DNA of 24,440 nt from a virus (lineage: Duplodnaviria > Heunggongvirae > Uroviricota > Caudoviricetes), in the IMG/VR virus record IMGVR_UViG_2585427750_000026; one strand, written 5' to 3'. Under the pieces are notes generated by a model that saw only the letters and a list, made by a program, of their open reading frames with translations, was not told where the DNA came from and ran no database searches. Positions within the stretch are counted from its first letter, which is position 1. Each line of letters begins with the position of its first letter. This document shows, piece by piece, positions 1,754-24,440 of the stretch. A program made the translations under genes and the position numbers.

Positions 1754-1755
1754 TT

Positions 1756-2423: not shown

Positions 2424-2486
2424 ATAATTAACCAGAGTTTTTAACGCACTTAATCGTGCGGGGCTTCTTTTTGCCTGGAGAAAGTC

Positions 2487-6702: not shown

Positions 6703-6767
6703 TTGACACAGGTTGTTGTGTGTGGTAAGGCTGTATCCCTTTGGCATTCAAAATGTAGGAGGCAACC
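6703..6767 (+). promoter_or_regulatory. Putative promoter and strong RBS for the peptidase gene
   Basis: TTGACA at 6703..6708, AT-rich stretch upstream (TTATATTAAT 6678..6687), and Shine-Dalgarno AGGAGG at 6757..6762, 5 nt before ATG 6768. The -10 element is not clear-cut. Confidence 0.35.
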
Positions 6768-7244: not shown

Positions 7245-7274
7245 TACCCTCTTTAACTTTTTTCAAACCGGTTT

Positions 7275-7311
7275 AAAATCACCATTATTTTATTAATAAT
7301 GGTGATTTTTT
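7275..7311 (+). promoter_or_regulatory. Perfect 15-bp inverted repeat (hairpin) with T-run immediately upstream of the membrane-protein start
   Basis: AAAATCACCATTATT (7275..7289), loop TTATT, AATAATGGTGATTTT (7295..7309), then TT and ATG at 7312. The right arm contains the only SD-like sequence (GGTGA) for the downstream gene. Confidence 0.5.
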
Positions 7312-7932
7312 ATGGCAGATATCGACCTCTCTGGCCAATCTCCGGCTCAGTCTTCCCAGCCATCCAAAACTTCAACCTTTCCACATCCACCTAGCGATGC
7401 CGATCCAGATATTTTGTTACGTAGAGAAGTGCATGATGGCATGGAAAGGAGGGGAATGCGCTTAGTTTTGTCAGCCACCGTACTTTTTTTTGCCATAATG
7501 TTTTTATGGAAAGGTCTGTATTTCGCTCTCGAAGTCGGAAATGGTTTGCTTGCGGCTAAAAGTAGTATTGTTTCAGCGTTGGCACAAAATGATGAAAAGG
7601 TTGTTTGCGAACCTAAAACTAAATGTATTGAGCCTAAACAGCAGACAATGAAACCTACAGAAAAAACTCCCGGCATGTCAACAAAGGGTGATAGAGTAAT
7701 GCCAAACTTATCTACAGATTGGCTTTCTGCAAGTTCGCTAATTGCCATAGTCGCTTTCATCCTTGGTGTTGGCTTGACGTTAATCCTTACCCTACTTAAG
7801 TCCGCTTTTCATCATCCGACTGATAAAAATCTCAATGAGCAAAAAACAACAGATGCGATTGAGTTGGCGACTCCCTTAAGTGAGTTAATCGCGGGTATTA
7901 TTAATTATCTCAAGAGCAAATTTTCTAAATAA
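7312..7932 (+). CDS. Two-transmembrane-helix membrane protein, unknown function (candidate effector)
   Basis: 206 aa with two hydrophobic helices (LVLSATVLFFAIMFLWKGLYFAL and LIAIVAFILGVGLTLILTLL) separated by a hydrophilic loop of about 70 aa containing two Cys. Lower GC than the phage core. Confidence 0.6.
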   Translation: MADIDLSGQSPAQSSQPSKTSTFPHPPSDADPDILLRREVHDGMERRGMRLVLSATVLFFAIMFLWKGLYFALEVGNGLLAAKSSIVSALAQNDEKVVCEPKTKCIEPKQQTMKPTEKTPGMSTKGDRVMPNLSTDWLSASSLIAIVAFILGVGLTLILTLLKSAFHHPTDKNLNEQKTTDAIELATPLSELIAGIINYLKSKFSK

Positions 7933-8141
7933 CGTCCTCTTGGTTATTTTTTAAATCAGCACCATTAGTGCCGGTTTTTTTATGCTGTTTTACTGTAATT
8001 TCCCTGTTTTTAAGCCGTGCATGCAGCAGGTGCATGGTTTTGCATGCGCAGGAAGTGTCCGTTCTGGCCGAGCACCGGCAGAACGGACGCGGATCCAGAA
8101 CGGTCATGCAACTGCATTCAAACCACCCCATGAAGCGGGCG

Positions 8142-8160
8142 GGCGAGGCGGGGAAAGCAC
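8142..8160 (+). other. cos: cos cohesive-end site (19 nt)
   Basis: GGCGAGGCGGGGAAAGCAC matches the 19-nt P2 cohesive end as I recall it, and sits at the expected position between the accessory region and gene Q. Confidence 0.7.
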
Positions 8161-8302
8161 TGCGCGCTGGCGGGGGTGCTGATTTTATTTTTTCAGCGTC
8201 TGAGCGCGTCGTGATGGCGTTTAGATTGTGCGCCGGGGCGTTGGTGTGTCTGCGGGCTGTTTTGTGCGGTGGTGAGCGTGTGAGGGCGTGATGACGGGGG
8301 GT

Positions 8303-8324
8303 AAAAAAGCCGCCCGCAGGCGGC
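8303..8324 (-). terminator. Intrinsic terminator downstream of Q (Q-P operon)
   Basis: GC-rich hairpin GCCGCC-CGCA-GGCGGC (8309..8324) followed on the minus strand by a T6 run (8303..8308), just 3-prime of the Q stop at 8330. Confidence 0.6.
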
Positions 8325-8329
8325 GATGT

Positions 8330-9364
8330 TCAGCCGTTGTCAGTGTCCAGTGAGTAGTTTTTAAAGCGGATGACCTCCTGACCGAGCCAGCCGTTTATCT
8401 CGCGGATCCTGTCCTGTAACGGGATAAGCTCATTGCGGACAAAGACCTTTGCCACTTTCTCAATATCACCCAGCGACCCGACGTTCTCCGGCTTGCCGCC
8501 CATCAACTGAAAGGGGATGCGGTGCGCGTCCAGCAGGTCAGCGGCGCTGGCTTTTTTGATATTAAAAAAATCGTCCTTCGTTGCCACTTCACTGAGCGGG
8601 ATAATTTTAATGCCGTCGGCTTTCCCCTGCGGGGCATAGAGAAACAGATTTTTAAAGTTGTTGCGGCCTTTCGACTTGACCATGTTTTCGCGAAGCATTT
8701 CGATATCGTTGCGATCCTGCACGGCATCGGTAACGTACATGATATATCCGGCATGAGCGCCGTTTTCGTAATACTTGCGGCGGAACAGCGTGGCCGACTC
8801 ATTCAGCCAGGCAGAATTAAGGGCGCTGAGATATTCCGGCAGGCCGTACAGCTCCTGATTAATATCCGGCTCCAGCAGGTGAAACACGGAGCCGGGTGCG
8901 AAGGCTGTCGGCTCGTTGAAGGACGGCACCCACCAGTAAACATCCTCCTCCACACCTCGGCGGGGATATTTTGCCGGTGAGGTTTCCAGTCTGATGACCT
9001 TACCGGTGGTGCTGTAACGCTTTTCCAGAAACGCATTACCGAACACCAGAAAATCCAGCACAAAGCGGCTGAAATCCTGCTGGGAAAGCCACGGATGCGG
9101 GATAAATGTCGAGGCCAGAATATTACGTTTGACGTAAATCGGTGAGCTGTGATGCACGGCAGCACGCAGGCTTTTTGCCAGACCGGTAAAGCTGATCGGT
9201 GGCTCATACCATCTGCCGTTACTGATGCACTCGACGTAATCCAGAATGTCACGGCGGTCGAGTACCGGCACCGGCTCACCAAAGGTGAATGCTTCCATTT
9301 TCGGGGCGCTGGCGGTCATTGTTTTTGCCGCAGGTTGCGGTGTTTTCCCTTTTTTCTTGCTCAT
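8330..9364 (-). CDS. Q: Portal protein gpQ
   Basis: 344 aa, the same length and position as P2 Q; translationally coupled to P (TGATG on the minus strand). Confidence 0.9.
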   Translation of the reverse strand: MSKKKGKTPQPAAKTMTASAPKMEAFTFGEPVPVLDRRDILDYVECISNGRWYEPPISFTGLAKSLRAAVHHSSPIYVKRNILASTFIPHPWLSQQDFSRFVLDFLVFGNAFLEKRYSTTGKVIRLETSPAKYPRRGVEEDVYWWVPSFNEPTAFAPGSVFHLLEPDINQELYGLPEYLSALNSAWLNESATLFRRKYYENGAHAGYIMYVTDAVQDRNDIEMLRENMVKSKGRNNFKNLFLYAPQGKADGIKIIPLSEVATKDDFFNIKKASAADLLDAHRIPFQLMGGKPENVGSLGDIEKVAKVFVRNELIPLQDRIREINGWLGQEVIRFKNYSLDTDNG

Positions 9365-11136
9365 CAGTAAAACTCCAGAATGGTGGATGTCAGCGGGGTG
9401 CTGATACCGGCGGTGAGTGGCTCATTTAACAGGGCGTGCATGGTCGCCCAGGCGAGGTCGGCGTGGCTGGCTTCCTCGCTGCGGCTGGCCTCATAGGTGG
9501 CGCTGCGTCCGCTGCTGGTCATGGTCTTGCGGATAGCCATAAACGAGCTGGTGATGTCGGTGGCGCTGACGTCATATTCCAGACAGCCACGGCGGATAAC
9601 GTCTTTTGCCTTGAGCACCATTGCGGTTTTCATTTCCGGCGTGTAGCGGATGTCGCGCGCGGCGGGATAGAACGAGCGCACGAGCTGGAACACGCCGACA
9701 CCGAGGCCGGTGGCATCAATACCGATGTATTCAACGTTATATTTTTCGGTGAGTTTGCGGATGGATTCCGCCTGAGTGGCAAAGTCCATGCCTTTCCACT
9801 GGTGACGCTCAAGTATTCTGAATTTGCCACCGGCCACCACCGGCGGTGCCAGCACCACGCATCCGGCGCTGTCGCCACGGTGTGACGGGTCGTAACCAAT
9901 CCATACCGGGCGGGAGCCGAACGGATTGGCGGCAAACGGCGCATAGTCTTCCCATTCTTCCAGCGTGTCGACCATGCAGCGTTGCAGCTCCTCGAACGGG
10001 AACACCGACGCCTTGTCGTCAACAAATTCACACATGAACAGGTTTTTAAAATCGTCGGCGCTGTTTTCACGTTTGAGCTGCTCAATGTCGAACAGCGTGC
10101 AGCCACCTTTCAGGGCGTCCTCAATGGTGACAATCTGCCGCCACTGGCCGTCCGCACAGAGAAGCCCACCGGCAAGGGCGTTATGACTGACGTCGATTTC
10201 CACGCGTTCGGCGGCGCTGGCGCGTCCCCGGTTGAACAGTTCACCTGACCAGAACGGGTAGGCGTCGTGCGCCAGCGTGGACGGGGTGGAGAAATAGGTC
10301 GAACGCAGGTGACTCTGTGAGGCCATACCTGATGCCACCTTACGCAGTACCTGAAAATTCGGGATCCAGAAAATCTCGTCGACGTACAGGTCGCCGTTAT
10401 GGCTCTGTGCGGTGTTGGAGTTGGTGCCGAGAAAAATTAGTTTTGCGCCGTTATTGCCCAGGACAATCGGGTCACCGGTCAGGTCAACGTCAACCAGACG
10501 GGCAAAGGCGATGATGTATTCGCGGAACACATACGCCTGCGTTTTACTGGCCGACAGAAAAATCTGGTTATGGCCGGTTTTCAGGGCGCGCAGCAGCGCC
10601 TCGCGGGAAAAATAAAACGTTGCGCCAATCTGGCGGGATTTCAGTATATCGCGGATGCGGTGCTCAAGCCCGGCGCGATACCAGTGCAACTGATAGTCGA
10701 AAGACTGCTCAAAGAAAATCTGCTCCAGCTTTTCGATGGCTTCGTCACTGAAAAAATTCTTTTTCGGTTTGCGACGCCCGCCTTTGTTGCGGTTAGCGAC
10801 GTTCGGATTAAGGTCTGCCTCGTTGCCGGTCTGACTGTAGCGGTTGACCCGCGCCAGTCGTTCAATCTGGCGTCCCAGCAGGTCAATTTCCTTGAAGTCA
10901 CCGCCGGTTTTCTGCGGTTTGATGATGAGCTGGGTCAGCCGCGCTTCCAGGCTCATTTCGACACGGCTGATGGGGGCAACGCTGTCCCAGCCGTCGCGCT
11001 GTTTCCAGCTCTGCACCGTCGGGCGTTTCATCTGCAACATGGCGGCAATCTGCGGCACGGAAACCCCCTGCCAGTACAGCAGCGCCGCCTGCCGACGCGG
11101 GTCGTGTAAAAGAGTGGTGTCTGTGGTGATGGTCAT
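9364..11136 (-). CDS. P: Terminase large (ATPase) subunit gpP
   Basis: 590 aa from the ATG at 11136 (MTITTDTTLL...), matching P2 P length. The ORF track's longer ORF to 11166 begins at an upstream alternative start. Confidence 0.9.
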   Translation of the reverse strand: MTITTDTTLLHDPRRQAALLYWQGVSVPQIAAMLQMKRPTVQSWKQRDGWDSVAPISRVEMSLEARLTQLIIKPQKTGGDFKEIDLLGRQIERLARVNRYSQTGNEADLNPNVANRNKGGRRKPKKNFFSDEAIEKLEQIFFEQSFDYQLHWYRAGLEHRIRDILKSRQIGATFYFSREALLRALKTGHNQIFLSASKTQAYVFREYIIAFARLVDVDLTGDPIVLGNNGAKLIFLGTNSNTAQSHNGDLYVDEIFWIPNFQVLRKVASGMASQSHLRSTYFSTPSTLAHDAYPFWSGELFNRGRASAAERVEIDVSHNALAGGLLCADGQWRQIVTIEDALKGGCTLFDIEQLKRENSADDFKNLFMCEFVDDKASVFPFEELQRCMVDTLEEWEDYAPFAANPFGSRPVWIGYDPSHRGDSAGCVVLAPPVVAGGKFRILERHQWKGMDFATQAESIRKLTEKYNVEYIGIDATGLGVGVFQLVRSFYPAARDIRYTPEMKTAMVLKAKDVIRRGCLEYDVSATDITSSFMAIRKTMTSSGRSATYEASRSEEASHADLAWATMHALLNEPLTAGISTPLTSTILEFY

Positions 11137-11309
11137 GAATACCTCGCCGTGATGAATACACGGCAAGGCTACTGAGTCGCGCCCCGCGATTCGCTAAGGT
11201 GCTGTTGTGTCAGTGATAAGCCATCCGGGACTGATGGCGGAGGATGCGCATCGTCGGGAAACTGATGCCGACATGTGACTCCTCTAATCACTATTCAGGA
11301 CTCCTGACA

Positions 11310-12164
11310 ATGGCAAAAAAAGTCTCAAAATTCTTTCGTATCGGCGTTGAGGGTGACACCTGTGACGGGCGTGTCATCAGTGCGCAGGATATTCAGGAAA
11401 TGGCCGAAACCTTTGACCCGCGTGTCTACGGTTGCCGCATTAACCTGGAACATCTGCGCGGCATCCTGCCTGACGGTATTTTTAAACGTTATGGCGATGT
11501 GGTCGAACTGAAGGCCGAAAAGATTGATGACGATTCGGCGCTGAAAGGCAAATGGGCGCTGTTTGCGAAAATCACCCCGACCGATGACCTTATCGCGATG
11601 AACAAGGCCGCGCAGAAGGTCTACACCTCAATGGAAATTCAGCCGAACTTTGCCAACACCGGCAAATGTTATCTGGTGGGGCTGGCCGTCACCGATGACC
11701 CGGCAAGCCTCGGCACGGAATACCTGGAATTCTGCCGCACGGCAAAACACAACCCTCTGAACCGCTTCAAATTAAGCCCTGAAAACCTGATTTCAGTGGC
11801 AACGCCCGTTGAGCTGGAATTTGAAGACCTGCCTGAAACCGTGTTCACCGCCCTGACCGAAAAGGTGAAATCCATTTTTGGCCGCAAACAGGCCAGCGAT
11901 GACGCCCGTCTGAATGATGTGCATGAAGCGGTGACCGCTGTTGCTGAACATGTGCAGGAAAAACTGAGCGCCACTGAGCAGCGCCTCGCTGAGATGGAAA
12001 CCGCCTTTTCCGCACTTAAGCAGGAGGTGACTGACAGGGCGGATGAAACCAGCCAGGCATTCACCCGCCTGAAAAACAGCCTCGACCACACCGAAAGTCT
12101 GACCCAGCAGCGCCGCAGCAAAGCCACCGGCGGTGGCGGTGACGCCCTGATGACGAACTGCTGA
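11310..12164 (+). CDS. O: Capsid scaffolding protein gpO
   Basis: 284 aa from the ATG at 11310 (MAKKVSKFFRIGVEG...), matching P2 O length; divergent from P. Confidence 0.85.
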   Translation: MAKKVSKFFRIGVEGDTCDGRVISAQDIQEMAETFDPRVYGCRINLEHLRGILPDGIFKRYGDVVELKAEKIDDDSALKGKWALFAKITPTDDLIAMNKAAQKVYTSMEIQPNFANTGKCYLVGLAVTDDPASLGTEYLEFCRTAKHNPLNRFKLSPENLISVATPVELEFEDLPETVFTALTEKVKSIFGRKQASDDARLNDVHEAVTAVAEHVQEKLSATEQRLAEMETAFSALKQEVTDRADETSQAFTRLKNSLDHTESLTQQRRSKATGGGGDALMTNC

Positions 12165-12218
12165 CCGGCGTCAGTCCGGGAAAACCTTCACGATTAACTC
12201 TTAATTTCAGGAAAAACT

Positions 12219-13292
12219 ATGCGCCAGGAAACCCGCTTTAAATTTAATGCCTACCTGTCCCGTGTTGCCGAACTGAACGGCATCGACGCCGGTGATGTGT
12301 CGAAAAAATTCACCGTTGAACCGTCGGTCACCCAGACCCTGATGAACACCATGCAGGAGTCCTCTGACTTTCTGACCCGCATCAACATTGTGCCGGTCAG
12401 CGAAATGAAAGGGGAAAAAATTGGCATCGGTGTCACCGGCTCCATCGCCAGCACCACCGACACCGCCGGTGGCACCGAGCGTCAGCCGAAGGACTTCTCG
12501 AAGCTGGCGTCAAACAAGTACGAATGCGACCAGATTAACTTCGATTTTTATATCCGCTACAAAACGCTGGACCTGTGGGCGCGTTATCAGGATTTCCAGC
12601 TCCGTGTCCGTAACGCCATTATCAAACGCCAGTCCCTTGATTTCATCATGGCCGGTTTTAACGGCGTGAAGCGTGCCGAAACCTCTGACCGCAGCAGTAA
12701 CCCGATGCTGCAGGATGTGGCGGTCGGCTGGCTGCAGAAATACCGCAATGAAGCTCCGGCGCGCGTGATGAGCAAGGTCACTGACGAGGAAGGCCATACC
12801 ACCTCTGAGGTTATCCGCGTGGGTAAGGGCGGTGATTATGTCAGCCTTGATGCACTGGTGATGGATGCGACCAATAACCTGATTGAACCGTGGTATCAGG
12901 AAGACCCTGACCTTGTGGTGATTGTGGGGCGTCAGCTACTGGCGGACAAGTATTTCCCCATCGTCAACAGGGAGCAGGACAACAGCGAAATGCTGGCCGC
13001 TGACGTCATCATCAGCCAGAAACGCATCGGTAACCTGCCAGCGGTACGCGTCCCGTACTTCCCGGCGGATGCGATGCTCATCACGAAGCTGGAAAACCTG
13101 TCCATCTACTACATGGATGACAGCCATCGCCGCGTGATTGAGGAAAACCCGAAACTCGACCGCGTGGAGAACTACGAGTCAATGAACATTGATTACGTGG
13201 TGGAAGACTACGCCGCCGGCTGTCTGGTGGAAAAAATTAAGGTCGGTGATTTCTCCACACCGGCTAAAGCGACCGCAGAGCCGGGAGCGTAA
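12219..13292 (+). CDS. N: Major capsid protein gpN
   Basis: 357 aa, matching P2 N length and position. Confidence 0.9.
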   Translation: MRQETRFKFNAYLSRVAELNGIDAGDVSKKFTVEPSVTQTLMNTMQESSDFLTRINIVPVSEMKGEKIGIGVTGSIASTTDTAGGTERQPKDFSKLASNKYECDQINFDFYIRYKTLDLWARYQDFQLRVRNAIIKRQSLDFIMAGFNGVKRAETSDRSSNPMLQDVAVGWLQKYRNEAPARVMSKVTDEEGHTTSEVIRVGKGGDYVSLDALVMDATNNLIEPWYQEDPDLVVIVGRQLLADKYFPIVNREQDNSEMLAADVIISQKRIGNLPAVRVPYFPADAMLITKLENLSIYYMDDSHRRVIEENPKLDRVENYESMNIDYVVEDYAAGCLVEKIKVGDFSTPAKATAEPGA

Positions 13293-13295
13293 CCG

Positions 13296-14039
13296 ATGAC
13301 GAGTCCCGCACAGCGCCACATGATGCGGGTCTCGGCAGCGATGACCGCGCAGCGGGACGCCGCCCCGCTGCGACATGCAACTGTCTATGAGCAGATGCTG
13401 GTTAAGCTGGCCGCAGACCAGCGCACACTGAAAGCGATTTATTCAAAAGAGCTGAAGGCCGCGAAAAAGCGCGAACTGCTGCCGTTCTGGTTGCCGTGGG
13501 TGAACGGTGTGCTGGAGCAGGGCAAAGGCGCACAGGATGACATTCTGATGACGGTCATGCTGTGGCGTCTGGATACCGGCGATATTGCCGGTGCGCTGGA
13601 GATTGCCCGTTATGCCCTGAAGTACGGTCTGACCATGCCGGGTAAACCCCGCCGTACCCCGCCGTACATGTTCACCGAGGAAGTGGCTCTCGCGGCCATG
13701 CGCGCTCACGCTGCCGGTGAGTCTGTGGATCCCCGCCTGCTGACGGACACCCTTGAACTGACCGCCACGGCTGACATGCCTGATGAAGTGCGCGCAAAGC
13801 TGCACAAAATCACCGGTCTGTTTCTGCGTGACGCTGGTGATGCCGCAGGGGCGCTGGCACACCTGCAACGTGCGACACAGCTCGACTGTCAGGCAGGCGT
13901 CAAAAAAGAGATTGAACGACTGGAGCGGGAGCTGAAACCGAAGCCGGAGCCGCAGCCCAAAGCGGCCACCCGCGCCCCGCGTAAGACCCGGAGCGTGACA
14001 CCGGCAAAACGTGGACGCCCGAAAAAGAAAGCCAGTTAA
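13296..14039 (+). CDS. M: Terminase small (endonuclease) subunit gpM
   Basis: 247 aa, matching P2 M length and position; basic Pro/Lys-rich C-terminus. Confidence 0.85.
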   Translation: MTSPAQRHMMRVSAAMTAQRDAAPLRHATVYEQMLVKLAADQRTLKAIYSKELKAAKKRELLPFWLPWVNGVLEQGKGAQDDILMTVMLWRLDTGDIAGALEIARYALKYGLTMPGKPRRTPPYMFTEEVALAAMRAHAAGESVDPRLLTDTLELTATADMPDEVRAKLHKITGLFLRDAGDAAGALAHLQRATQLDCQAGVKKEIERLERELKPKPEPQPKAATRAPRKTRSVTPAKRGRPKKKAS

Positions 14040-14138
14040 CAACCGAATGCGCCCCGCGCCAGGGCGGCACGCCGGTCAGTGAGGGTGAATCACCTGACAC
14101 TGCACCGGCGTCCACCGCCCGACTTTTCAGAGGTAGTC

Positions 14139-14648
14139 ATGATGACGCTGATTATTCCGCGAAAGGAGGCTCCCGTGTCCGGTGAGGGTACGGTGGTCAT
14201 CCCGCAACCGGCAGGCGACGAGCCGGTGATTAAAAACACGTTCTTTTTTCCCGATATCGACCCGAAGCGCGTCCGGGAACGTATGCGCCTTGAGCAGACC
14301 GTCGCCCCCGCCCGTCTGCGTGAGGCCATCAAGTCAGGCATGGCTGAAACGAATGCGGAGCTGTACGAGTACCGCGAACAGAAAATTGCTGCCGGTTTTA
14401 CGCGTCTGGCGGACGTTCCGGCGGACGACATCGACGGTGAAAGCATCAAGGTTTTTTACTACGAGCGCGCCGTGTGCGCGATGGCGACCGCGTCGCTTTA
14501 TGAGCGTTATCGCGGCGTGGATGCCAGTGCGAAAGGCGACAAGAAGGCTGACAGCATTGACAGCACCATTGATGAACTGTGGCGGGATATGCGCTGGGCG
14601 GTGGCGCGTATCCAGGACAAGCCGCGCTGCATCGTGAGTCAAATCTGA
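14139..14648 (+). CDS. L: Head completion/stabilisation protein gpL
   Basis: 169 aa from ATG 14139 (MMTLIIPRKEAP...), matching P2 L length. Confidence 0.8.
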   Translation: MMTLIIPRKEAPVSGEGTVVIPQPAGDEPVIKNTFFFPDIDPKRVRERMRLEQTVAPARLREAIKSGMAETNAELYEYREQKIAAGFTRLADVPADDIDGESIKVFYYERAVCAMATASLYERYRGVDASAKGDKKADSIDSTIDELWRDMRWAVARIQDKPRCIVSQI

Positions 14649-14851
14649 TGAAGACCTTTGCGCTACAGGGCGACACGCTCGACGCCATTTGTGTCCGGTA
14701 TTACGGGCGCACTGAGGGCGTGGTTGAGACCGTGCTCGCCGCAAATCCGGGACTGGCTGAACTGGGTGCGGTGCTGCCACATGGCACCGCCGTCGAACTG
14801 CCCGACGTTCAGACCGCGCCCGTGGCTGAAACTGTCAATCTGTGGGAGTAA
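14648..14851 (+). CDS. X: Tail protein gpX
   Basis: 67 aa from ATG 14648 (TGATG overlap with L), matching P2 X length and position. Confidence 0.75.
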   Translation: MKTFALQGDTLDAICVRYYGRTEGVVETVLAANPGLAELGAVLPHGTAVELPDVQTAPVAETVNLWE

Positions 14852-14854
14852 CGC

Positions 14855-15136
14855 ATGACAGCAGAAGAAAAAAGCGTCCTGTCGCTTTTCATGATTGGGG
14901 TGCTGATTGTTGTCGGCAAGGTGCTTGCCGGTGGTGAACCCATCACCCCGCGTCTGTTTATCGGGCGCATGTTGCTCGGCGGTTTTGTCTCGATGGTTGC
15001 CGGTGTTGTTCTGGTGCAGTTTCCTGACCTGTCACTGCCTGCGGTGTGCGGCATCGGCTCCATGCTGGGTATCGCCGGTTATCAGGTGATTGAGATTGCC
15101 ATTCAGCGCCGCTTTAAGGGCAGGGGGAAACCGTAA
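14855..15136 (+). CDS. Y: Holin gpY
   Basis: 93 aa with hydrophobic transmembrane segments and a charged C-terminus; P2 Y position. Confidence 0.8.
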   Translation: MTAEEKSVLSLFMIGVLIVVGKVLAGGEPITPRLFIGRMLLGGFVSMVAGVVLVQFPDLSLPAVCGIGSMLGIAGYQVIEIAIQRRFKGRGKP

Positions 15137-15633
15137 TGCCGGTAATTAACACGCATCAGAATATCGCCGCCTTTCTCGACATGCTGGCCGTGTCCGAAGG
15201 GACGGCGAATCATCCGCTGACGAAAAACCGGGGCTATGACGTGATAGTCACCGGACTGGACGGGAAGCCGGAAATTTTCACCGACTACAGTGACCACCCG
15301 TTCGCGCATGGCCGACCGGCGAAGGTGTTTAACCGTCGCGGTGAAAAATCCACGGCCTCCGGTCGCTATCAGCAGCTTTACCTGTTCTGGCCGCATTACC
15401 GCAAACAGCTTGCCCTGCCGGATTTCAGTCCGTTGTCACAGGACAGACTCGCCATTCAGTTGATCCGCGAACGCGGTGCGCTGGATGACATCCGGGCGGG
15501 ACGTATTGAGCGCGCCATTTCACGCTGTCGCAATATCTGGGCGTCCCTGCCGGGAGCCGGTTACGGTCAGCGTGAGCATTCACTGGAAAAACTGGTCACC
15601 GTCTGGCGTACCGCTGGCGGCGTACCGGCTTAA
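15136..15633 (+). CDS. K: Endolysin (lysozyme) gpK
   Basis: 165 aa, TAATG overlap with Y; P2 K length and position. Confidence 0.85.
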   Translation: MPVINTHQNIAAFLDMLAVSEGTANHPLTKNRGYDVIVTGLDGKPEIFTDYSDHPFAHGRPAKVFNRRGEKSTASGRYQQLYLFWPHYRKQLALPDFSPLSQDRLAIQLIRERGALDDIRAGRIERAISRCRNIWASLPGAGYGQREHSLEKLVTVWRTAGGVPA

Positions 15634-15647
15634 ACGGAGTAAACACC

Positions 15648-16073
15648 ATGAAGAAATTATCCCTTTCACTGATGCTGAATGTGTCGCTGGCGCTGATGCT
15701 GGCACTGTCCCTGATTTACCCGCAGAGCGTGGCCGTCAGTTTTGTCGCTGCCTGGGCGATTCTGGCGACGGTTATCTGTGTGGTTTCCGGTGGTGTCGGG
15801 GTGTATGCCACTGAGTATGTGCTGGAACGCTACGGGCGGGAGCTGCCGCCGGAATCGCTGGCTGTGAAGATTGTCACGTCGCTGTTTTTGCAGCCGGTGA
15901 CGTGGTGCAGACGGGCGGCGGCTCTGGTGGTGATGGTGGCGACATTTATCTCGCTGGTCGCCGCCGGGTGGATTTTTACTGCGCTGATTTATCTCGTGGC
16001 GTCGGTGTTCTTCCGGCTGATACGTACGGCCTGCCGTCAGCGTTTTGAGGGGCGGGAACCATGTCAAAGCTGA
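15648..16073 (+). CDS. lysA: Lysis timing membrane protein LysA
   Basis: 141 aa, multiple hydrophobic helices; P2 lysA position. Confidence 0.7.
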   Translation: MKKLSLSLMLNVSLALMLALSLIYPQSVAVSFVAAWAILATVICVVSGGVGVYATEYVLERYGRELPPESLAVKIVTSLFLQPVTWCRRAAALVVMVATFISLVAAGWIFTALIYLVASVFFRLIRTACRQRFEGREPCQS

Positions 16074-16486
16074 TGATTGTGCTGGTTGTGTTGTTATCAC
16101 TGGCGGTGGCGGGGCTGTTTCTGGCGAAGCATGAAAACGCCAGCCTGCGCGCCTCGCTGGACAGGGCGAACAACGTCGCCAGCGGTCAGCAGACGACCAT
16201 CACCATGCTGAAAAATCAGCTTCATGTTGCGCTCACCAGGGCAGATAAAAACGAGCTGGCGCAGGTTGCACTGCGTCAGGAACTGGAGAACGCCGCGAAA
16301 CGTGAAGCACAGCGCGAGAAAACCATCACGAGGTTACTTAATGAGAACGAAGATTTTCGCCGCTGGTACGGTGCTGACCTGCCTGATGCTGTGCGCCGGT
16401 TGCACCAGCGCCCCGCCTGCACCGACGCCAGTGATTGTCCACAACGCCTGCCCGAAAGTGAGCCTTTGCCCGATGCCGGGCAGTGA
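16061..16486 (+). CDS. lysB: LysB (inner-membrane spanin, Rz-like)
   Basis: 141 aa with a single N-terminal TM helix (LMIVLVVLLSLAVAGLFLA) followed by a coiled-coil-like region. Confidence 0.7.
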   Translation: MSKLMIVLVVLLSLAVAGLFLAKHENASLRASLDRANNVASGQQTTITMLKNQLHVALTRADKNELAQVALRQELENAAKREAQREKTITRLLNENEDFRRWYGADLPDAVRRLHQRPACTDASDCPQRLPESEPLPDAGQ

Positions 16487-16619
16487 CCCGGAGACGAACG
16501 GTGATTTAAGTGCCGATATCCGGCAGCTTGAGAACGCGCTGGCACGCTGTGCCAGCCAGGTAAAAATGATTAAACACTGTCAGGACGAAAACGATGCTCA
16601 AACCCGACAGCCTGCGTAG
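16341..16619 (+). CDS. lysC: LysC (outer-membrane lipoprotein spanin, Rz1-like), overlapping lysB in another frame
   Basis: 92 aa from ATG 16341 with a signal peptide and lipobox-like LCAGC followed by a Pro-rich segment; embedded in the +1 frame of the lysB 3-prime half. Confidence 0.6.
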   Translation: MRTKIFAAGTVLTCLMLCAGCTSAPPAPTPVIVHNACPKVSLCPMPGSDPETNGDLSADIRQLENALARCASQVKMIKHCQDENDAQTRQPA

Positions 16620-17061
16620 GGCGCTGACTGATGCCGTCACGGTGCTGAAAACTAACCCCGATATGCTGCAGATATTCGTGGATAACGGGAGTATTGCCTC
16701 CACGCTGGCGACGTCGCTGTCGTTCGAAAAGCGTTACACGCTCAATGTGATTGTGACCGACTTTACCGGTGATTTTGACCTGCTCATCGTGCCGGTGCTG
16801 GCGTGGCTGCGGGAAAATCAGCCCGACATCATGACCACCGACGAAGGCCAGAAAAAGGGCTTCACGTTTTATGCAGACATCAACAATGACAGCAGCTTTG
16901 ATATCAGCATCAGCCTGATGCTGACCGAGCGCACGCTGGTCAGTGAGGTGGGCGGCGCACTGCATGTGAAGAATATCCCGGAACCTCCGCCGCCGGAGCC
17001 GGTCACCCGCCCGATGGAGCTGTATATCAATGGCGAACTGGTGAGCAAGTGGGATGAATGA
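16594..17061 (+). CDS. R: Tail completion protein gpR
   Basis: 155 aa, P2 R length and position. Confidence 0.8.
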   Translation: MLKPDSLRRALTDAVTVLKTNPDMLQIFVDNGSIASTLATSLSFEKRYTLNVIVTDFTGDFDLLIVPVLAWLRENQPDIMTTDEGQKKGFTFYADINNDSSFDISISLMLTERTLVSEVGGALHVKNIPEPPPPEPVTRPMELYINGELVSKWDE

Positions 17062-17506
17062 GTTTAAGCGTTTTGAAGACCGGCTGACCGGACTGATTGA
17101 GTCGCTGTCACCGTCAGGGCGTCGGCGACTGAGTGCCGAACTGGCGAAACGTCTGCGGCAGAGTCAGCAGCGTCGGGTGATGGCGCAGAAAGCCCCGGAC
17201 GGCACACCCTACGCGCCACGTCAGCAGCAGAGCGTCAGAAAAAAGACCGGTCGTGTTAAGCGAAAAATGTTTGCGAAACTTATCACCAGTCGTTTTTTGC
17301 ATATCCGCGCCAGCCCGGAGCAGGCATCAATGGAATTTTACGGCGGGAAGTCGCCGAAAATCGCCAGTGTGCATCAGTTCGGTCTGTCGGAAGAAACCCG
17401 GAAAGACGGTAAGAAAATTGATTATCCGGCGCGTCCTCTGCTCGGCTTTACCGGTGAGGATGTGCAGATGATTGAGGAGATTATCCTGGCTCACCTTGAG
17501 CGTTAG
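17054..17506 (+). CDS. S: Tail completion protein gpS
   Basis: 150 aa, P2 S length and position; overlaps the R stop. Confidence 0.8.
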   Translation: MNEFKRFEDRLTGLIESLSPSGRRRLSAELAKRLRQSQQRRVMAQKAPDGTPYAPRQQQSVRKKTGRVKRKMFAKLITSRFLHIRASPEQASMEFYGGKSPKIASVHQFGLSEETRKDGKKIDYPARPLLGFTGEDVQMIEEIILAHLER

Positions 17507-17536
17507 TTTTATCCAGGCAGAGGCTGATGCGCAATT

Positions 17537-17571
17537 AAACATTGAGCGGCCATGCTGGTCGCTCAATGTTT
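17537..17571. terminator. Bidirectional stem-loop between convergent S and the AT-rich gene
   Basis: Perfect 12-bp inverted repeat AAACATTGAGCG ... CGCTCAATGTTT with an 11-nt loop, between the S stop (17506) and the minus-strand gene stop (17578). Confidence 0.5.
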
Positions 17572-17577
17572 AGAGGT

Positions 17578-18363
17578 TTATGAGTGATTTTTATTTGATG
17601 CTTTGTATTCTAAAACCTTCTTATTGGCGTAAAAGAATTTTGTATATGACAGGAATATAACCAGACCTGAAGTGAAATAGACGAGGGATAGTATTAATAA
17701 TGCTTTTTTGTGACTGTTATTATCTTTAATCTCCTGGCTTAACCATTCGGAGTCCTCCTCGTTTAGCTGTAAGAGCTTATTGCAGGCGATTTCAGGAAGT
17801 GTGTCTTTTATAAATACGTTTTGCAGTCTCTTGCAATCGGCAAGGCTATAAGTTTTATTAAATTCAACTGCTTTATTTTTGAAGGATAAAAGAACTTTGT
17901 CACTATAAACATAGTACATCATATTTTTATATGGTATGCCTATGGCATCTCTTACTATAGCGGATTGTTTGTTGTGTATATAACATGCGAAGAGAATATA
18001 AATAATACTGGCCAGAATTACAATTATTGTTTTAATTATGTGTGGTGGTTTTGTTATGTCACCCCAGATGCGAGTAAGGAAAAAATACGATGTTTTTAGT
18101 TTTCCATCAATCAGTCCCTGCTGTATCATTCTCACATTTTCAATGCCTGATACATTGATTCCGTTAATTATTTTAAATAGTTGAATGTCGCGCCACTCGC
18201 GGTCAAGTCTTTTTAATTTTTTGTCTGAATATCCAAAATTGAAATAATGTGCAATAAGCCTCATAAGGTTACTTTTACCAAAGCTAAAAAATGCTAATAC
18301 TGCAAAGCTACAAAGGAAAAAAACGATTAGCCCCCACACATTAGTCACATTATAGCTGACCAT
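17578..18363 (-). CDS. AT-rich membrane protein of unknown function (P2 orf30-like accessory gene)
   Basis: 261 aa on the strand opposite the late operons, with a strong SD (AAGGAG). Markedly AT-rich with Lys/Asn/Ile/Phe-rich composition. Three hydrophobic helices (N-terminal, central IIKTIIVILASIIYILFACYI, C-terminal LILSLVYFTSGLVIFLSY). Confidence 0.6.
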   Translation of the reverse strand: MVSYNVTNVWGLIVFFLCSFAVLAFFSFGKSNLMRLIAHYFNFGYSDKKLKRLDREWRDIQLFKIINGINVSGIENVRMIQQGLIDGKLKTSYFFLTRIWGDITKPPHIIKTIIVILASIIYILFACYIHNKQSAIVRDAIGIPYKNMMYYVYSDKVLLSFKNKAVEFNKTYSLADCKRLQNVFIKDTLPEIACNKLLQLNEEDSEWLSQEIKDNNSHKKALLILSLVYFTSGLVIFLSYTKFFYANKKVLEYKASNKNHS

Positions 18364-18446
18364 TACGCTCTCCTTGAATGTTGTCTGGTAGTTCTACAAA
18401 TGAATCCAGATAGCATAACTTTTATATATTGTGCAATCTCACATGC

Positions 18447-19082
18447 ATGAACACTCTCGCAAATATTCAGGAACTCGCGCGCGCACTGCGCAACATGATT
18501 CGCACCGGCATTATCGTCGAAACCGACCTTAACGCCGGTCGCTGCCGCGTGCAGACCGGCGGCATGTGCACCGACTGGCTTCAGTGGCTGACCCATCGTG
18601 CCGGGCGTTCGCGCACATGGTGGGCACCTTCCGTGGGGGAACAGGTGCTGATTCTGGCCGTGGGCGGTGAACTCGACACGGCGTTCGTTCTGCCGGGGAT
18701 TTATTCCGGCGATAACCCTGCGCCGTCTGCGTCGGCTGATGCCCTGCATATCCGTTTCCCTGACGGGGCGGTGATTGAGTATGAACCCGAAACCAGTGCA
18801 CTCACGGTAAGCGGAATTAAAACGGCCAGCGTGACGGCTTCTGATTCTGTTACTGCCACGGTACCGGTGGTCACGGTGAAAGCGTCAACCCGTGTCACCC
18901 TGGACACACCAGAAGTGGTCTGCACTAACAAACTGACTACCGGCACGCTGGAAGTGCAGAAGGGCGGGACGATGCGCGGCAACATTGAACACACCGGCGG
19001 TGAACTCTCATCAAACGGTAAGGTACTGCATACCCATAAACACCCCGGCGACAGCGGCGGCACAACCGGGAGTCCTTTATGA
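18447..19082 (+). CDS. V: Baseplate spike/assembly protein gpV
   Basis: 211 aa from ATG 18447 (MNTLANIQELARALRN...), P2 V length and position. Confidence 0.85.
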   Translation: MNTLANIQELARALRNMIRTGIIVETDLNAGRCRVQTGGMCTDWLQWLTHRAGRSRTWWAPSVGEQVLILAVGGELDTAFVLPGIYSGDNPAPSASADALHIRFPDGAVIEYEPETSALTVSGIKTASVTASDSVTATVPVVTVKASTRVTLDTPEVVCTNKLTTGTLEVQKGGTMRGNIEHTGGELSSNGKVLHTHKHPGDSGGTTGSPL

Positions 19083-19426
19083 CAGCGCGTTATCTCGGAA
19101 TGAATCGCAGTGATGGCCTGACTGTCACTGACCTTGAGCATATCAGCCAGAGTATCGGCGATATCCTGCGCACACCGGTCGGCTCACGGGTGATGCGTCG
19201 TGATTACGGCTCGTTGCTGGCATCAATGATTGACCAGCCGCAGACCCCGGCGCTTGAGTTGCAGATTAAGGTCGCCTGTTACATGGCGGTGCTGAAATGG
19301 GAACCCCGCGTCACCCTGTCATCCGTCACCACTGAGCGCAGTTTTGACGGGCGAATGACGGTCACGTTAACCGGCCAGCACAACGACACCGGCCAGCCAC
19401 TTTCATTAACCATCCCTGTGAGTTGA
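19079..19426 (+). CDS. W: Baseplate wedge protein gpW (gp25-like)
   Basis: 115 aa, ATGA overlap with V. Confidence 0.85.
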   Translation: MTARYLGMNRSDGLTVTDLEHISQSIGDILRTPVGSRVMRRDYGSLLASMIDQPQTPALELQIKVACYMAVLKWEPRVTLSSVTTERSFDGRMTVTLTGQHNDTGQPLSLTIPVS

Positions 19427-19430
19427 AACC

Positions 19431-20339
19431 ATGCCGATTATCGACCTGAACCAGCTACCCGCACCGGATGTGGTCGAGGAGCTGGACTTTGAAAGCATTC
19501 TCGCTGAACGCAAGGCGACACTGATTTCCCTTTACCCGGAAGATCAGCAGGAGGCGGTCGCCGGTACCCTGACACTGGAATCCGAGCCTCTCGTCAAACT
19601 GCTGGAGGAAAATGCTTATCGTGAGCTTATCTGGCGTCAGCGTGTGAATGAGGCCGCACGGGCGGTGATGCTGGCCTGTGCCGCCGGTAATGACCTTGAT
19701 GTGATTGGTGCCAATTACAACACCACGCGCCTGATTATCACTCCGGCAGATGATTCGACTATCCCGCCGACACCGGCAGTGATGGAATCTGACACCGATT
19801 ATCGTCTGCGTATTCAGCAGGCGTTTGAGGGCTTAAGCGTCGCCGGGTCGGTGGGGGCCTATCAGTATCATGGTCGCAGTGCCGACGGGCGTGTCGCGGA
19901 TATCTCTGTCACCAGTCCGTCTCCGGCCTGCGTCACCATCTCCGTACTGTCACGTGAAAATAACGGTGTCGCATCCGAAGACCTGCTGGCTGTGGTGCGT
20001 AACGCTCTTAATGGCGAGGACGTCAGGCCGGTGGCCGACCGCGTGACCGTGCAGTCTGCCGCCATCGTTGAATACCAGATAAACGCCACGCTTTACCTTT
20101 ACCCTGGTCCCGAAAGCGAACCCATCCGCGCTGCCGCCGTGAAAAAACTGGAAGCGTACATCACGGCACAGCACCGGCTGGGGCGCGACATCCGTCTGTC
20201 TGCCATTTATGCCGCCTTGCATGTGGAAGGCGTGCAGCGTGTCGAACTGGCTGCACCACTGGCCGACATCGTGCTCAACAGTACGCAGGCGTCTTTCTGC
20301 ACCGAATACCACGTCGTGACCGGAGGCTCGGATGAGTGA
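19431..20339 (+). CDS. J: Baseplate protein gpJ
   Basis: 302 aa, P2 J length and position. Confidence 0.85.
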   Translation: MPIIDLNQLPAPDVVEELDFESILAERKATLISLYPEDQQEAVAGTLTLESEPLVKLLEENAYRELIWRQRVNEAARAVMLACAAGNDLDVIGANYNTTRLIITPADDSTIPPTPAVMESDTDYRLRIQQAFEGLSVAGSVGAYQYHGRSADGRVADISVTSPSPACVTISVLSRENNGVASEDLLAVVRNALNGEDVRPVADRVTVQSAAIVEYQINATLYLYPGPESEPIRAAAVKKLEAYITAQHRLGRDIRLSAIYAALHVEGVQRVELAAPLADIVLNSTQASFCTEYHVVTGGSDE

Positions 20340-20862
20340 TTCGCGACTGCTGCCGACCGGCTCATCACCGCTTGAAGTTGCCGCCGCAAAAGCCTGTGCG
20401 GAAATTGAAAAAACGCCGGTCAGTATTCGTGAGCTCTGGAACCCGGACACCTGTCCGGCAAATCTGCTGCCGTGGCTGGCGTGGGCGTTTTCGGTTGACA
20501 GGTGGGATGAAAAGTGGCCGGAAGCGACAAAACGCGCCGTTATTCGCGATGCCTATTTCATCCACTGTCATAAGGGCACGATAGGTGCAATCCGGCGTGT
20601 GGTGGAGCCGCTGGGCTATCTCATCAACGTGACGGAGTGGTGGGAAAACAGTGACCCGCCCGGCACCTTCCGGCTTGATATTGGTGTACTGGAAAGTGGC
20701 ATCACAGAGGCAATGTATCAGGAAATGGAACGGCTGATTGCTGATGCCAAACCTGCAAGCCGTCACCTTATTGGCCTGAACATTTCCCGGGACATTCCCG
20801 GCTACCTGTTCGCCGGTGGTGTGGCTTACGACGGCGATGTAATTACGGTTTACCCCGGATAA
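20332..20862 (+). CDS. I: Baseplate/tail protein gpI
   Basis: 176 aa, overlaps the J stop; P2 I length and position. Confidence 0.85.
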   Translation: MSDSRLLPTGSSPLEVAAAKACAEIEKTPVSIRELWNPDTCPANLLPWLAWAFSVDRWDEKWPEATKRAVIRDAYFIHCHKGTIGAIRRVVEPLGYLINVTEWWENSDPPGTFRLDIGVLESGITEAMYQEMERLIADAKPASRHLIGLNISRDIPGYLFAGGVAYDGDVITVYPG

Positions 20863-20872
20863 GTGAGGAATA

Positions 20873-23200
20873 ATGAGCACAAAATTCAAAACCGTTATCA
20901 CCACTGCTGGTGCAGCAAAGCTGGCAGCGGCAACCGCGCCGGGAGGGCGGAAGGTCAACATTACCACGATGGCCGTCGGGGATGGCGGTGGTAAATTGCC
21001 TGTCCCGGATGCCGGACAGACCGGGCTTATCCACGAAGTCTGGCGACATGCGCTGAACAAAATCAGCCAGGACAAACGAAACAGTAATTATATTATCGCA
21101 GAGCTGGTTATTCCGCCGGAGGTGGGCGGTTTCTGGATGCGTGAGCTTGGCCTGTACGATGATGCTGGAACGTTAATTGCCGTGGCGAACATGGCTGAAA
21201 GTTATAAGCCAGCTCTTGCCGAAGGCTCAGGGCGTTCGCAGACCTGCCGCATGGTCATCATCGTCAGCAGTGTGGCCTCAGTGGCGCTGACCATTGACAC
21301 CACAACGGTGATGGCAACGCAGGATTACGTTGATGACAAAATTGCAGAACATGAACAGTCACGACGTCACCCGGACGCCTCGCTGACCGCCAAAGGTTTT
21401 ACTCAGTTAAGCAGTGCGACCAACAGCACGTCTGAAACACTCGCCGCAACACCAAAAGCGGTAAAAGCAGCATATGACCTTGCTAACGGGAAATACACTG
21501 CACAGGACGCCACCACAGCGCGAAAAGGCCTTGTCCAGCTCAGTAGTGCCACCAACAGCACGTCTGAAACGCTCGCCGCAACACCAAAAGCGGTAAAAGC
21601 AGCATATGACCTTGCTAACGGGAAATACACTGCACAGGACGCCACCACAGCGCGAAAAGGCCTTGTCCAGCTCAGTAGTGCCACCAACAGCACGTCTGAA
21701 ACGCTCGCCGCAACACCAAAAGCGGTAAAAGCAGCATATGACCTTGCTAACGGGAAATACACTGCACAGGACGCCACCACAGCGCGAAAAGGCCTTGTCC
21801 AGCTCAGTAGTGCCACCAACAGCACGTCTGAAACGCTCGCCGCAACACCAAAAGCGGTAAAAGCAGCATATGACCTTGCTAACGGGAAATACACTGCACA
21901 GGACGCCACCACCGCGCGAAAAGGCCTTGTCCAGCTCAGTAGCGCCACCAACAGCGATTCTGAAACGCTTGCGGCAACGCCAAAGGCGGTTAAGACAGCG
22001 TATGACCTTGCTAACGGGAAATACACTGCACAGGATGCCACCACAGCGCGAAAAGGTCTTGTCCAGCTCAGTAGCGCCACCAACAGTGATTCTGAAACGC
22101 TGGCTGCAACACCAAAAGCGGTGAAGTCTGCCTATGACAATGCTGAAAAACGTCTTCAGAAAGATCAGAACGGTGCGGATATTCCTGATAAAGGACGCTT
22201 CCTGAGTAACATTAATGTTTACAGCAAAGGTGAAGTGGATAAGAAAAAGGGAATGCGAAAGTATTCGTTTGCAGCCCCTGCAAATGTCGTTGCCGGGAAG
22301 TGGTATCCCGTTATCTTTCGCCGTGCTGCCAGCCTTTCAGGAGAAATGGCATCCCGCGTCGTTATTTCAACTGGTTGTTATAACGGCGATTATGTAATGA
22401 ATAACTGCGAGTTTAATGGCATGGTTATGCCCGGAGGCTGGACCGATCGTGGTTCATATGCGGCAGGTTATTTCTGGACGTATCAGACTAATGAGCGTTC
22501 AATCCATTCCATTGTTACAAGCCTGAAAGATGATGATGTATGTAGTGTTTTTTATGTTGAAGCCAGAGCTTTCCCTGTGCAAATTCTTGCAGAGGAAGGG
22601 CTAACGGTTATTGTTCCGACAGAGGATTATGTCGTCGGTCAAACGACATATAAGTGGGGGGCAACTAATCCCGCTACAGAAAGCACGAACGCACAGGCTA
22701 TTCTGGATTTTAAAAATGGACGTGGTTATTACTGTTCACATCCATTTATTTCCAGCCTTTCAGGAAATGCTGCAACAGCAACGAAGTTAGCGAACGCAAG
22801 AAATATTAATGGTGTCAGATTTGATGGCTCTGCCGATATAAATATTAATACACTGGTATCCAGAAACCGTGTTAATGCATTAGGTGGGAGCGTAAAGGGG
22901 ACACCAGGTATTCAGATGTATGAGGCATACAACAATGGCTACCCAACAGCCTATGGTAATGTGCTTCATCTCACTGGCGTAACCGCAGTAGGAGAGGGTG
23001 AGTTACTTATTGGCTGGAGTGGAACCAGCGGTGCTCATGCTCCGGCATATATTCGTTCCCGACGAGATACCACAGATGCTAACTGGTCTGGATGGGCGCA
23101 ACTATATACAACTGCTCATAAACCCTCAGCGGGAGATGTTGGTGCATACATAGACTGGCCCCCTGAATCTCCAGACAACCAATATCACTTAAATAAGTGA
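20873..23200 (+). CDS. H: Tail-fibre protein gpH, repeat-expanded and 3-prime interrupted by IS2
   Basis: N-terminus [20 protein letters not shown] is P2 H-like. Contains about 5.7 in-frame copies of a 44-aa repeat. The last 16 codons plus stop (23153..23200; the boundary codon at 23150..23152 straddles the junction) are read from the IS2 terminal repeat, so the native C-terminus is missing. Confidence 0.85.
21392..22135 (+). repeat. Tandem 132-bp (44-codon) in-frame repeat array in H, about 5.7 copies
   Basis: Unit KG(F/L)(T/V)QLSSATNS(T/D)[12 protein letters not shown](A/T/S)[18 protein letters not shown] starting at 21392, 21524, 21656, 21788, 21920 and 22052. Copies 2 and 3 are nucleotide-identical, copy 4 differs by one base, and copies 1, 5 and 6 are more divergent. 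Confidence 0.9.
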
Positions 23201-23241
23201 TAGTCTTAATACTAGTTTTTAGACTAGTCATTGGAGAGCAG

Positions 23242-23607
23242 ATGATTGATGTCTTAGGACCGGAGAAACGCAGACGGCGTACTACACAGGAAAAGATCGC
23301 TATTGTTCAGCAGAGTTTTGAACCGGGAATGACGGTCTCCCTTGTTGCCCGGCAACACGGTGTGGCAGCCAGCCAGTTATTTCTCTGGCGCAAGCAATAC
23401 CAGGAGGGAAGTCTTACTGCTGTGGCCGCAGGAGAGCAGGTCGTTCCTGCCTCTGAACTTGCTGCTGCCATGAAGCAGATTAAAGAACTCCAGCGCCTGC
23501 TCGGCAAAAAAACGATGGAAAATGAACTCCTTAAAGAAGCCGTTGAATACGGGCGTGCAAAAAAGTGGATATCGCACGCGCCCTTATTGCCCGGGGATGG
23601 GGAGTAA
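23242..23607 (+). CDS. insC: IS2 transposase OrfA (InsC), HTH
   Basis: 121 aa [41 protein letters not shown]... recognised as IS2 InsC. Confidence 0.85.
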
Positions 23608-24440
23608 GCTTAGTCAGCCGTTGTCTCCGGGTGTCGCGTGCGCAGTTGCACGTAATTCTCAGACGAACCGATGACTGGAAAGATGGTCGCCGCAGCCGTC
23701 ACTCAGATGATACGGATGTGCTTCTCCGTATACACCATGTTATCGGAGAGCTGCCCACGTATGGTTATCGTCGGGTATGGGCGCTGCTTCGCAGACAGGC
23801 CGAACTTGATGGTATGCCTGCGATCAATGCCAAACGTGTTTACCGGATCATGCGCCAGAATGCGCTGTTGCTTGAGCGAAAAACCGCTGTACCGCCATCG
23901 AAACGGGCACATACTGGCAAAGTGGCCGTGAAAGAAAGCAATCAACGATGGTGCTCTGACGGGTTCGAGTTCCGCTGTGATAACGGAGAAAAACTGCGAG
24001 TCACGTTCGCGCTGGACTGCTGTGACCGTGAGGCACTGCACTGGGCAGTCACTACGGGCGGCTTCGACAGTGAAACAGTACAGGACGTAATGCTGGGAGC
24101 GGTGGAACGCCGCTTCGGCAACGAGCTTCCGGCGTCTCCAGTAGAGTGGCTGACGGATAATGGTTCATGCTACCGGGCTAATGAAACACGGCAGTTTGCC
24201 CGGATGTTGGGGCTTGAACCGAAGAACACGGCGGTGCGGAGTCCGGAGAGTAACGGCATAGCAGAGAGCTTCGTGAAAACGATAAAGCGTGACTACATCA
24301 GTATCATGCCCAAACCAGACGGGTTAACGGCAGCAAAGAACCTTGCAGAGGCGTTCGAGCATTATAACGAATGGCATCCGCATAGTGCACTGGGTTATCG
24401 CTCGCCACGGGAATATCTGCGGCAGCAGGCCAGTAATGGG
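23565..24440 (+). CDS. insD: IS2 transposase OrfB (InsD, DDE catalytic domain), 3-prime partial, in the -1 frame relative to insC
   Basis: Open frame from 23565 to the window end encoding ...[37 protein letters not shown]...[13 protein letters not shown]...[16 protein letters not shown]. Reached by a -1 frameshift at A_AAA_AAG (23559..23565). Absent from the ORF track because no stop lies inside the window. Confidence 0.8.

Follow-up and report, generated by a model that had tools for sequence, protein, structure and literature searches.

Introduction

The tail fibres of P2-type phages have been a textbook case of horizontal module exchange since the H and G sequences of P2 appeared in the early 1990s, and mosaic H genes that have segments in common with P1, Mu, lambda and T-even fibres are a classical instance of transfer among unrelated phages. 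That short conserved motifs in tail-fibre genes act as recombination linkers is a long-standing proposal. Fibre shafts can also bear secondary glycan-binding sites. At the lateral tail-fibre loci of different coliphage groups, only the 5' end, which serves attachment to the virion, is conserved (PMC8594841). Fibre folding and trimerisation are driven by chaperones of the Tfa type, which bind to the distal moiety and combine a variable N-terminal domain with a conserved C-terminal one (PMC9608196).

Here we describe a tail-fibre gene H in a P2-like prophage of E. coli, for which the closest described system is gpH of P2 (NP_046775.1) with gpG. The position of the gene after I and the architecture of its product (Phage_tail_fib followed by Phage_fiber_2) are the same in both. 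P2 gpH differs in having two fibre repeats where the product described here has six, and residues 252-604 of the P2 protein are unrelated to residues 428-759 of ours. In addition, the copy described here lacks the tip of the fibre, and G is not visible because of an IS2 insertion. The H genes of the Peduovirus P22H4 (NC_049385.1) and of Escherichia phage 9W likewise combine a P2-like N-terminus, repeats, a segment that we call module A, a tip and G (96-98%), but they have four repeats, a different cassette of about 304 nt in place of the segment that we call module B, and an intact gene.

Parts of the same gene are related to fibres of other phages. P1 S and S', the variable part of which lies in the invertible C segment, contain a match to module B and share linker motifs of the NGADIPx type, and the P1 fibre runs about 365 residues further after the shared part. 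S and S' of Mu also have the linker motifs in common with H, and their structures (5YVQ and 8JU3) match the tip of intact relatives of our gene. In contrast to P1 and Mu, the H locus has no invertible segment or invertase, and its overall architecture and N-terminus differ. The side tail fibres of the Queuovirinae HdSG1, JenK1 and 9g share module A and the flanking linker motifs with H, but these are siphovirus fibres with an N-terminus of the PF08400 type, a distal collar domain and a Gly/His-rich tip.

Results

We analysed a window of 24,440 nucleotides, that is, the whole stretch of DNA of the IMG/VR record IMGVR_UViG_2585427750_000026. It contains a P2-like prophage, in which positions 8142-21597 are colinear with nucleotides 1-13458 of P2 at 97.6% DNA identity and positions 1755-6004 with nucleotides 26290-30539 at 97.2%. 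The genes V, W, J and I (the I homologue belonging to PF09684) lie upstream of H, colinear with P2. The features of H and of the element that interrupts it are listed in Table 1. The H product has the same sequence as KEK75002.1/WP_113707426.1, from E. coli 3-475-03_S3_C1, and this exact product is recorded on one contig (JOQD01000033.1 of assembly GCA_000713895.1), the end of which is the end of the window. RefSeq already lists the allele as 'tail fiber protein', and most of it is also found in two isolated peduoviruses.

Table 1. Features of gene H and of the IS2 element in the window.
Feature	Position	Strand	Description
Gene H ORF	20873..23200	+	775 codons; truncated tail-fibre gene plus 16 IS2-encoded codons and stop
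P2-like N-terminal part of H (residues 1-251)	20873..21625	+	Baseplate-attachment domain and first two fibre repeats
132-nt tandem repeat array	21413..22122	+	TRF: period 132, 5.4 copies, 96% matches
Module A	22127..22779	+	Linker motif, then beta-rich fibre domain of ~175 residues; GC 0.446
Module B cassette	22780..23086	+	Begins in linker motif, ends near NWSGW; GC 0.463
Start of conserved distal segment	23087..23150	+	Leads into tip domain in intact relatives
IS2-like element (IS3 family)	23151..24440	+	IS2 nucleotides 1-1290 of ~1331; ends at contig end
IS2 orfA	23242-23607		HTH_Tnp_1 (PF01527)
IS2 orfB	Runs off contig end		rve and rve_3 domains

A Pfam search of the H product found PF12571 at residues 1-151 (E = 2.7e-58) and six units of PF03406. 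By BLASTP, residues 1-251 are 95.2% identical to residues 1-251 of P2 H. The Phage_fiber_2 units (PF03406), which number two in P2 and four or five in relatives, form here an expanded array of 44-residue repeats that precedes module A.

A preliminary description of the window had singled out positions 22136-23150 as a distal fibre domain that is lower in GC than the N-terminal part of H and does not resemble the distal part of P2 H, and had read it as a receptor-binding module, the horizontal exchange of which would change the host range. The observation itself stands, because the two peptides quoted for the region (located near residues 493-506 and 716-743 of the H ORF, 20873-23200), the shift in GC and the comparisons with P2 at the protein and DNA levels all agree. 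A colinear stretch of high identity to P2 H across the region was looked for; the colinear DNA identity to P2 ends inside the repeat array, and the last repeat-level DNA match stops at 22126 (P2 nucleotides 13459-13461). Over a few bases the identity thus goes from about 97% to nothing detectable. BLASTP of residues 428-759 against residues 252-604 of P2 H gave no significant match (best E = 2.4), and all further protein matches to P2 H beyond the block of residues 1-251 paired repeat with repeat. The start that had been given for the region, 22136, is within 10 nt of this breakpoint and of the change-point in base composition. One continuous frame runs throughout the region, and a hidden separate gene was rejected; no minus-strand ORF of at least 60 residues occurs in it, and the plus strand has a single out-of-frame ORF, of 60 residues.

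GC drops from 0.546 (20873-22135) to 0.453 (22136-23150; z = 4.4) and GC3 from 0.537 before to 0.355 after 22135, and the maximum-likelihood single change-point of GC in H is 22133, near the homology breakpoint 22126. A comparable drop between adjacent stretches of such lengths is found at 192 of 4433 window positions (4.3%), and 6.9% of the 1015-nt segments of the P2-like late region, mainly in an orf30-like island, are at least as AT-rich. P2 itself has a GC of 0.475 in distal H, as against 0.560 in the 5' part, and of 0.438 in G. Because distal H and G of P2 are also low, low GC is a general trait of these genes in P2-type phages and no mark of a recent event, and composition alone is no proof of transfer. 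As a mark of exchange, the shift does adjoin the breakpoint, but it is not specific to this prophage.

Beyond the breakpoint, the region is not one module but is itself a mosaic of modules A and B and the start of a conserved distal segment. Searches for tail-fibre relatives found them at the DNA level in HdSG1 and P1 and at the protein level in SSU5 and in T5-like, rV5-like and T4-like phages. The DNA of module A is 98.4% identical to P22H4 and 9W and 77% identical to the Nonagvirus HdSG1. Its protein sequence is 57-60% identical to JenK1 and 9g; identities of 30-41% link it to T5-like, rV5-like, Drexler-type and lambdoid phage fibres, as well as to gp36, the 'small distal tail fiber subunit', of T4-like Aeromonas phages. 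Module A is matched by 261 phage records, of which 256 cover at least 80% of its length, and its relatives make up 128 clusters at E <= 0.001 among 1.84 billion representative proteins. They are mostly internal to long proteins (positions of about 50 to 2000 in proteins of up to 2682 residues), and in PHROGs module A lies mid-profile in tail-fibre families. As a mid-fibre segment it is found in at least six lineages: Peduovirus, Queuovirinae, T5-like phages, rV5-like phages, T4-like Aeromonas phages and lambdoid/Drexler-type siphoviruses.

Searches of Pfam, NCBIfam and the PDB by phmmer and by profile left both modules, A and B, without a family or a structure; the strong PDB profile matches that were obtained stem from C-terminal parts of other members of the alignment, and not from the query region. 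An AlphaFold2 model of the two modules, made from a 32-sequence alignment, was poor (mean pLDDT 59, pTM 0.44). A Foldseek search of the PDB with this model returned nothing at E <= 0.001; the sole plausible row was a fibre segment of Mu in 8JU3, over 68 columns, and no fold was assigned. Module A is a widespread fibre domain that to date has neither a family model nor a structure.

Module B is related to residues 34-153 of P1 Sv and Sv', at the start of the variable part, with about 77% protein identity and 74.6% DNA identity. Each P1 record contains two matches, one in Sv' and one in Sv, indicating that module B corresponds to a stretch that the two alternative P1 fibres, S and S', share. Being common to S and S', this stretch cannot serve in P1 as the host-discriminating part. 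Module B is also carried by SSU5 (74% protein identity), Goslar, P7, D6 and lambdoid side fibres. A comparison of two close relatives showed how the module is exchanged. The intact H gene of E. coli EH01-18-02 is 96-98% identical to that of P22H4 up to the equivalent of window position 22779 and only 42-57% identical across the module B cassette of about 307 nt. Past the cassette, starting at the position equivalent to 23087, identity is back at 96-98% for the rest of H and the whole of G. At this position P22H4 has a cassette of 304 nt, which resembles residues ~390-460 of P1 Sv' and is about 38% identical to module B. There is thus a clean cassette swap between near-identical flanks at the position of module B. 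The three switches sit in short conserved motifs, including NGADIPDK and FDGS, that recur in Mu, P1 and lambdoid fibres, and the places where identity breaks suggest that these linker motifs serve as recombination points.

Intact relatives of the gene are present in E. coli chromosomes. At least 80% of the 1015-nt query is held by 59 of the 5426 complete E. coli genomes, many at an identity of at least 99%, and the stretch of modules A and B is found at this identity contiguous with an intact tip and G. The intact H has 793 codons in EH01-18-02 and 749 codons in strain 602687; the latter is a 100% match, yet it has no IS2 at the site and only four repeats. In both, H runs 78 residues past the equivalent of window position 23150 (TKTESDSRYVRDMRLGG…YRPVQKYINGTWYNVAQV), and the tip is 96-98% conserved between the two cassette variants, EH01-18-02 and P22H4. 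When a query containing the tip was compared with the PDB by phmmer, Mu S' (8JU3, E = 1.9e-23), a 'short tail fiber' (9CUY) and Mu S (5YVQ) were found. The highest-scoring stretches (63-72 bits) fall within the final ~110 query residues, which are mainly the tip of the intact relatives, and a weaker one (E about 0.02-0.025) over the first 30 query residues is the NGADIPDK linker. Modules A and B had no match to the distal domains of Mu S/S' (5YVQ, 8JU3) by phmmer against the PDB. The region described at first as a receptor-binding module is thus not the distal tip: the intact fibres run on for these 78 residues, and it is only there that they match the Mu S/S' domains.

The tip of the intact relatives is 45% identical to the C-terminus of P2 H (the last ~65-73 residues), and the final 13 residues are identical. 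The tip is the sole distal part that resembles P2 H, and it lies outside 22136-23150. Ending as it does in IS2-encoded residues, the ORF in the window lacks a C-terminal tip homologous to P2 H/Mu S (…YINGTWYNVAQV), and the H gene described here is therefore a truncated member of the P2-type gpH. A homologue of G follows 3 nt after H in the intact relatives. The G protein of EH01-18-02 is 76% identical to P2 G, and its C-terminus is almost invariant; both features fit the modular build of Tfa chaperones (PMC9608196).

At 23151 starts the terminal sequence TAGACTGGCCCCC… (TAGACTGGCCCCCTGAATCTCC…), which an annotated IS2 copy has in identical form at its left end; the first base of that copy is fixed by its 5-bp duplication TGATA. 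The element in the window has the same terminal sequence as IS2, an orfA with HTH_Tnp_1 and an orfB with rve, and it is 95.3% identical to the annotated copy over 1290 nt, a divergence of about 5%. The last 16 codons of H and the stop codon are IS2 sequence. Because the end sequence of IS2 begins exactly at 23151, position 23150 is the insertion site, the last base before IS2, and not a domain boundary. The contig stops 41 nt short of the expected right end of IS2, and only IS2 is visible downstream of 23151. The H::IS2 junction is known from this one draft contig ending in an IS; neither the 5426 complete E. coli genomes nor the GTDB species representatives contain it. In the complete genomes, the best matches that seemed to reach 14-20 nt leftward past the IS end were dismissed as chance extensions picked by the ranking. 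UniRef gives the same fusion protein for 5 Escherichia entries.

Discussion

We are confident that the region 22136-23150 is the distal shaft of a P2-type H, put together from modules that circulate among unrelated enterobacterial phages and cut by IS2 before the tip. The comparisons show that the gene consists of the P2 N-terminus, expanded repeats and two foreign shaft modules joined at conserved motifs. The N-terminal 251 residues supply P2's own baseplate-attachment domain and the first fibre repeats. After the repeat array, H passes at 22126/22127 into module A, a mid-fibre beta-rich domain, and by a second switch at about 22780 into module B, related to P1 S/S'. The modules were presumably acquired by recombination at the linker motifs, and the donor may have been a pool of AT-richer fibre genes common to enterobacterial myoviruses and siphoviruses. 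The lower GC and GC3 would reflect this pool, in which distal fibre and chaperone genes circulate.

In the intact relatives, the 78-residue Mu-S-like tip and G would determine receptor contact and assembly, the tip being the presumed site of contact with the LPS receptor and the part from which chaperone-assisted trimerisation would start. In the prophage described here, IS2 at 23151 takes the tip out of the reading frame and would part G from H. With the tip lost and H separated from G, the fibre would not assemble; judging from the sequence, functional fibres are very probably not made and the prophage is probably adsorption-defective. The change of host range that had been proposed is moot for this prophage, because the tip is outside the ORF and G would no longer be adjacent after the IS2 cut.

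A different reading is that the stretch 22136-23150 is itself the receptor-binding module, so that its exchange directly retargets the phage. The stretch is the distal half of the fibre and the part that varies between close relatives, module B being swapped in P22H4; module A has no known function, and secondary glycan-binding sites are possible on shafts. We nevertheless regard this reading as unlikely, since the distal domains of Mu S/S' are matched only by the 78 residues past 23150, which are conserved between the cassette variants, since module A is mid-protein in most of its relatives, and since a segment that the alternative P1 fibres share, such as module B, cannot be what discriminates hosts in P1. 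What remains of the earlier proposal is an exchange of distal H, well supported by the breakpoint at 22126/22127, the foreign relatives and the swap of about 307 nt; what was exchanged is not the tip. A part in receptor binding is conceivable for modules A or B. There is a slim chance that module A (about residues 449-626) is an uncharacterised mobile fibre domain that may form an independent secondary glycan-binding site, for example for O-antigen, instead of being a passive bead in the shaft. If module A does bind glycan, swapping it would tune host range apart from the tip.

We give hardly any credence to the idea that no exchange took place and that the segment is the orthologue of distal P2 H, diverged beyond recognition under diversifying selection, with a low GC of its own. 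Although the distal H and the G of P2 are low in GC as well, gradual divergence sits badly with the abrupt loss of identity to P2. Moreover, the segment is far closer to the siphovirus HdSG1 (77% DNA identity) and to P1 (75%) than to P2, despite a prophage that is 97% P2-like, and near-identical flanks enclose alternative cassettes in EH01-18-02 and P22H4. It is also very improbable that faulty assembly of the draft genome created the H-IS2 junction or even the mosaic itself. The contig does end inside an IS, and neither the complete E. coli genomes nor the GTDB representatives have this exact junction. However, it is normal for contigs of short-read assemblies to end in multicopy IS elements, the fusion protein is recorded for 5 Escherichia entries, and IS2 sequence sets in at the junction with the very first nucleotide of the terminal repeat. 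Transposition predicts just this, whereas nothing would place a chimeric join at that point. As for the mosaic, it is real, since many complete genomes have modules A and B joined without a gap to the same upstream sequence.

An H gene assembled from circulating shaft modules and cut by IS2 is already known biology; nothing in it is outside the familiar pattern of tail-fibre mosaicism plus an inactivating insertion, and it has little significance beyond annotation. The breakpoints at 22126/22127, ~22780 and ~23087 are natural splice points, which may be of use when chimeric fibres of P2-type phages or tailocins are designed. For annotation, WP_113707426.1, deposited as 'tail fiber protein', is an IS2-truncated pseudogene. 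The intact 749-codon H of strain 602687 is called a pseudogene by PGAP.

Gene H and its repeat array

Because an IS2-like element lies inside gene H, the tail-fibre gene of this P2-like prophage, the 775-residue protein deposited as 'tail fiber protein' (KEK75002.1/WP_113707426.1) is an H-IS2 fusion artefact that arose from ORF calling. We also inspected L001 5002-7251 of E. coli 602687 and L002 7965-10038 of E. coli EH01-18-02, two strains in which H is intact. The number of Phage_fiber_2 units in H is six in the window versus two in P2, with four in both strain 602687 and the Peduovirus phage P22H4, and five in EH01-18-02. Therefore, fibre length is polymorphic through the copy number of the 132-nt repeat. 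H of strain 602687 is split into two pseudogene fragments by PGAP, yet its 749-codon frame is intact.

Features located in the window
Feature	Position	Strand	Description
Integrase	1-1011	-	PF24624 and PF00589
CapP/IrrE-like M78 peptidase ORF	6768-7244		PADLOC capP, E = 3.8e-31; Pfam PF06114
P2 orf30 homologue	17578-18363	-	261-residue ORF, opposite orientation, between S and V
132-nt tandem repeat	21413-22122		5.4 copies, 96% matches; codes for six Phage_fiber_2 units
IS2-like element	23151-24440		inserted in gene H, reaches contig end; 95.3% identity to annotated IS2 copy

Other regions outside gene H

Where P2 carries old and tin, the window instead has low-GC DNA (0.40-0.46, about 6004-8142). 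This slot may be a hotspot for defence or regulation, with the low-GC DNA as its cargo. The DNA carries the CapP/IrrE-like M78 peptidase ORF and a 206-residue ORF (7312-7932) that gave no family match. The most AT-rich island in the window is the orf30 homologue (GC about 0.355), for which no match was found in Pfam or PADLOC. The integrase differs from P2 Int, the match to P2 int being limited to about 140 nt at 80%, and this difference in sequence suggests an attachment site other than that of P2. The slot between G and FI, which holds Z/fun in P2 and is the known hotspot of variable cargo, is occupied by an S1 peptidase in 602687 and by GapS4a/GapS4b in EH01-18-02.
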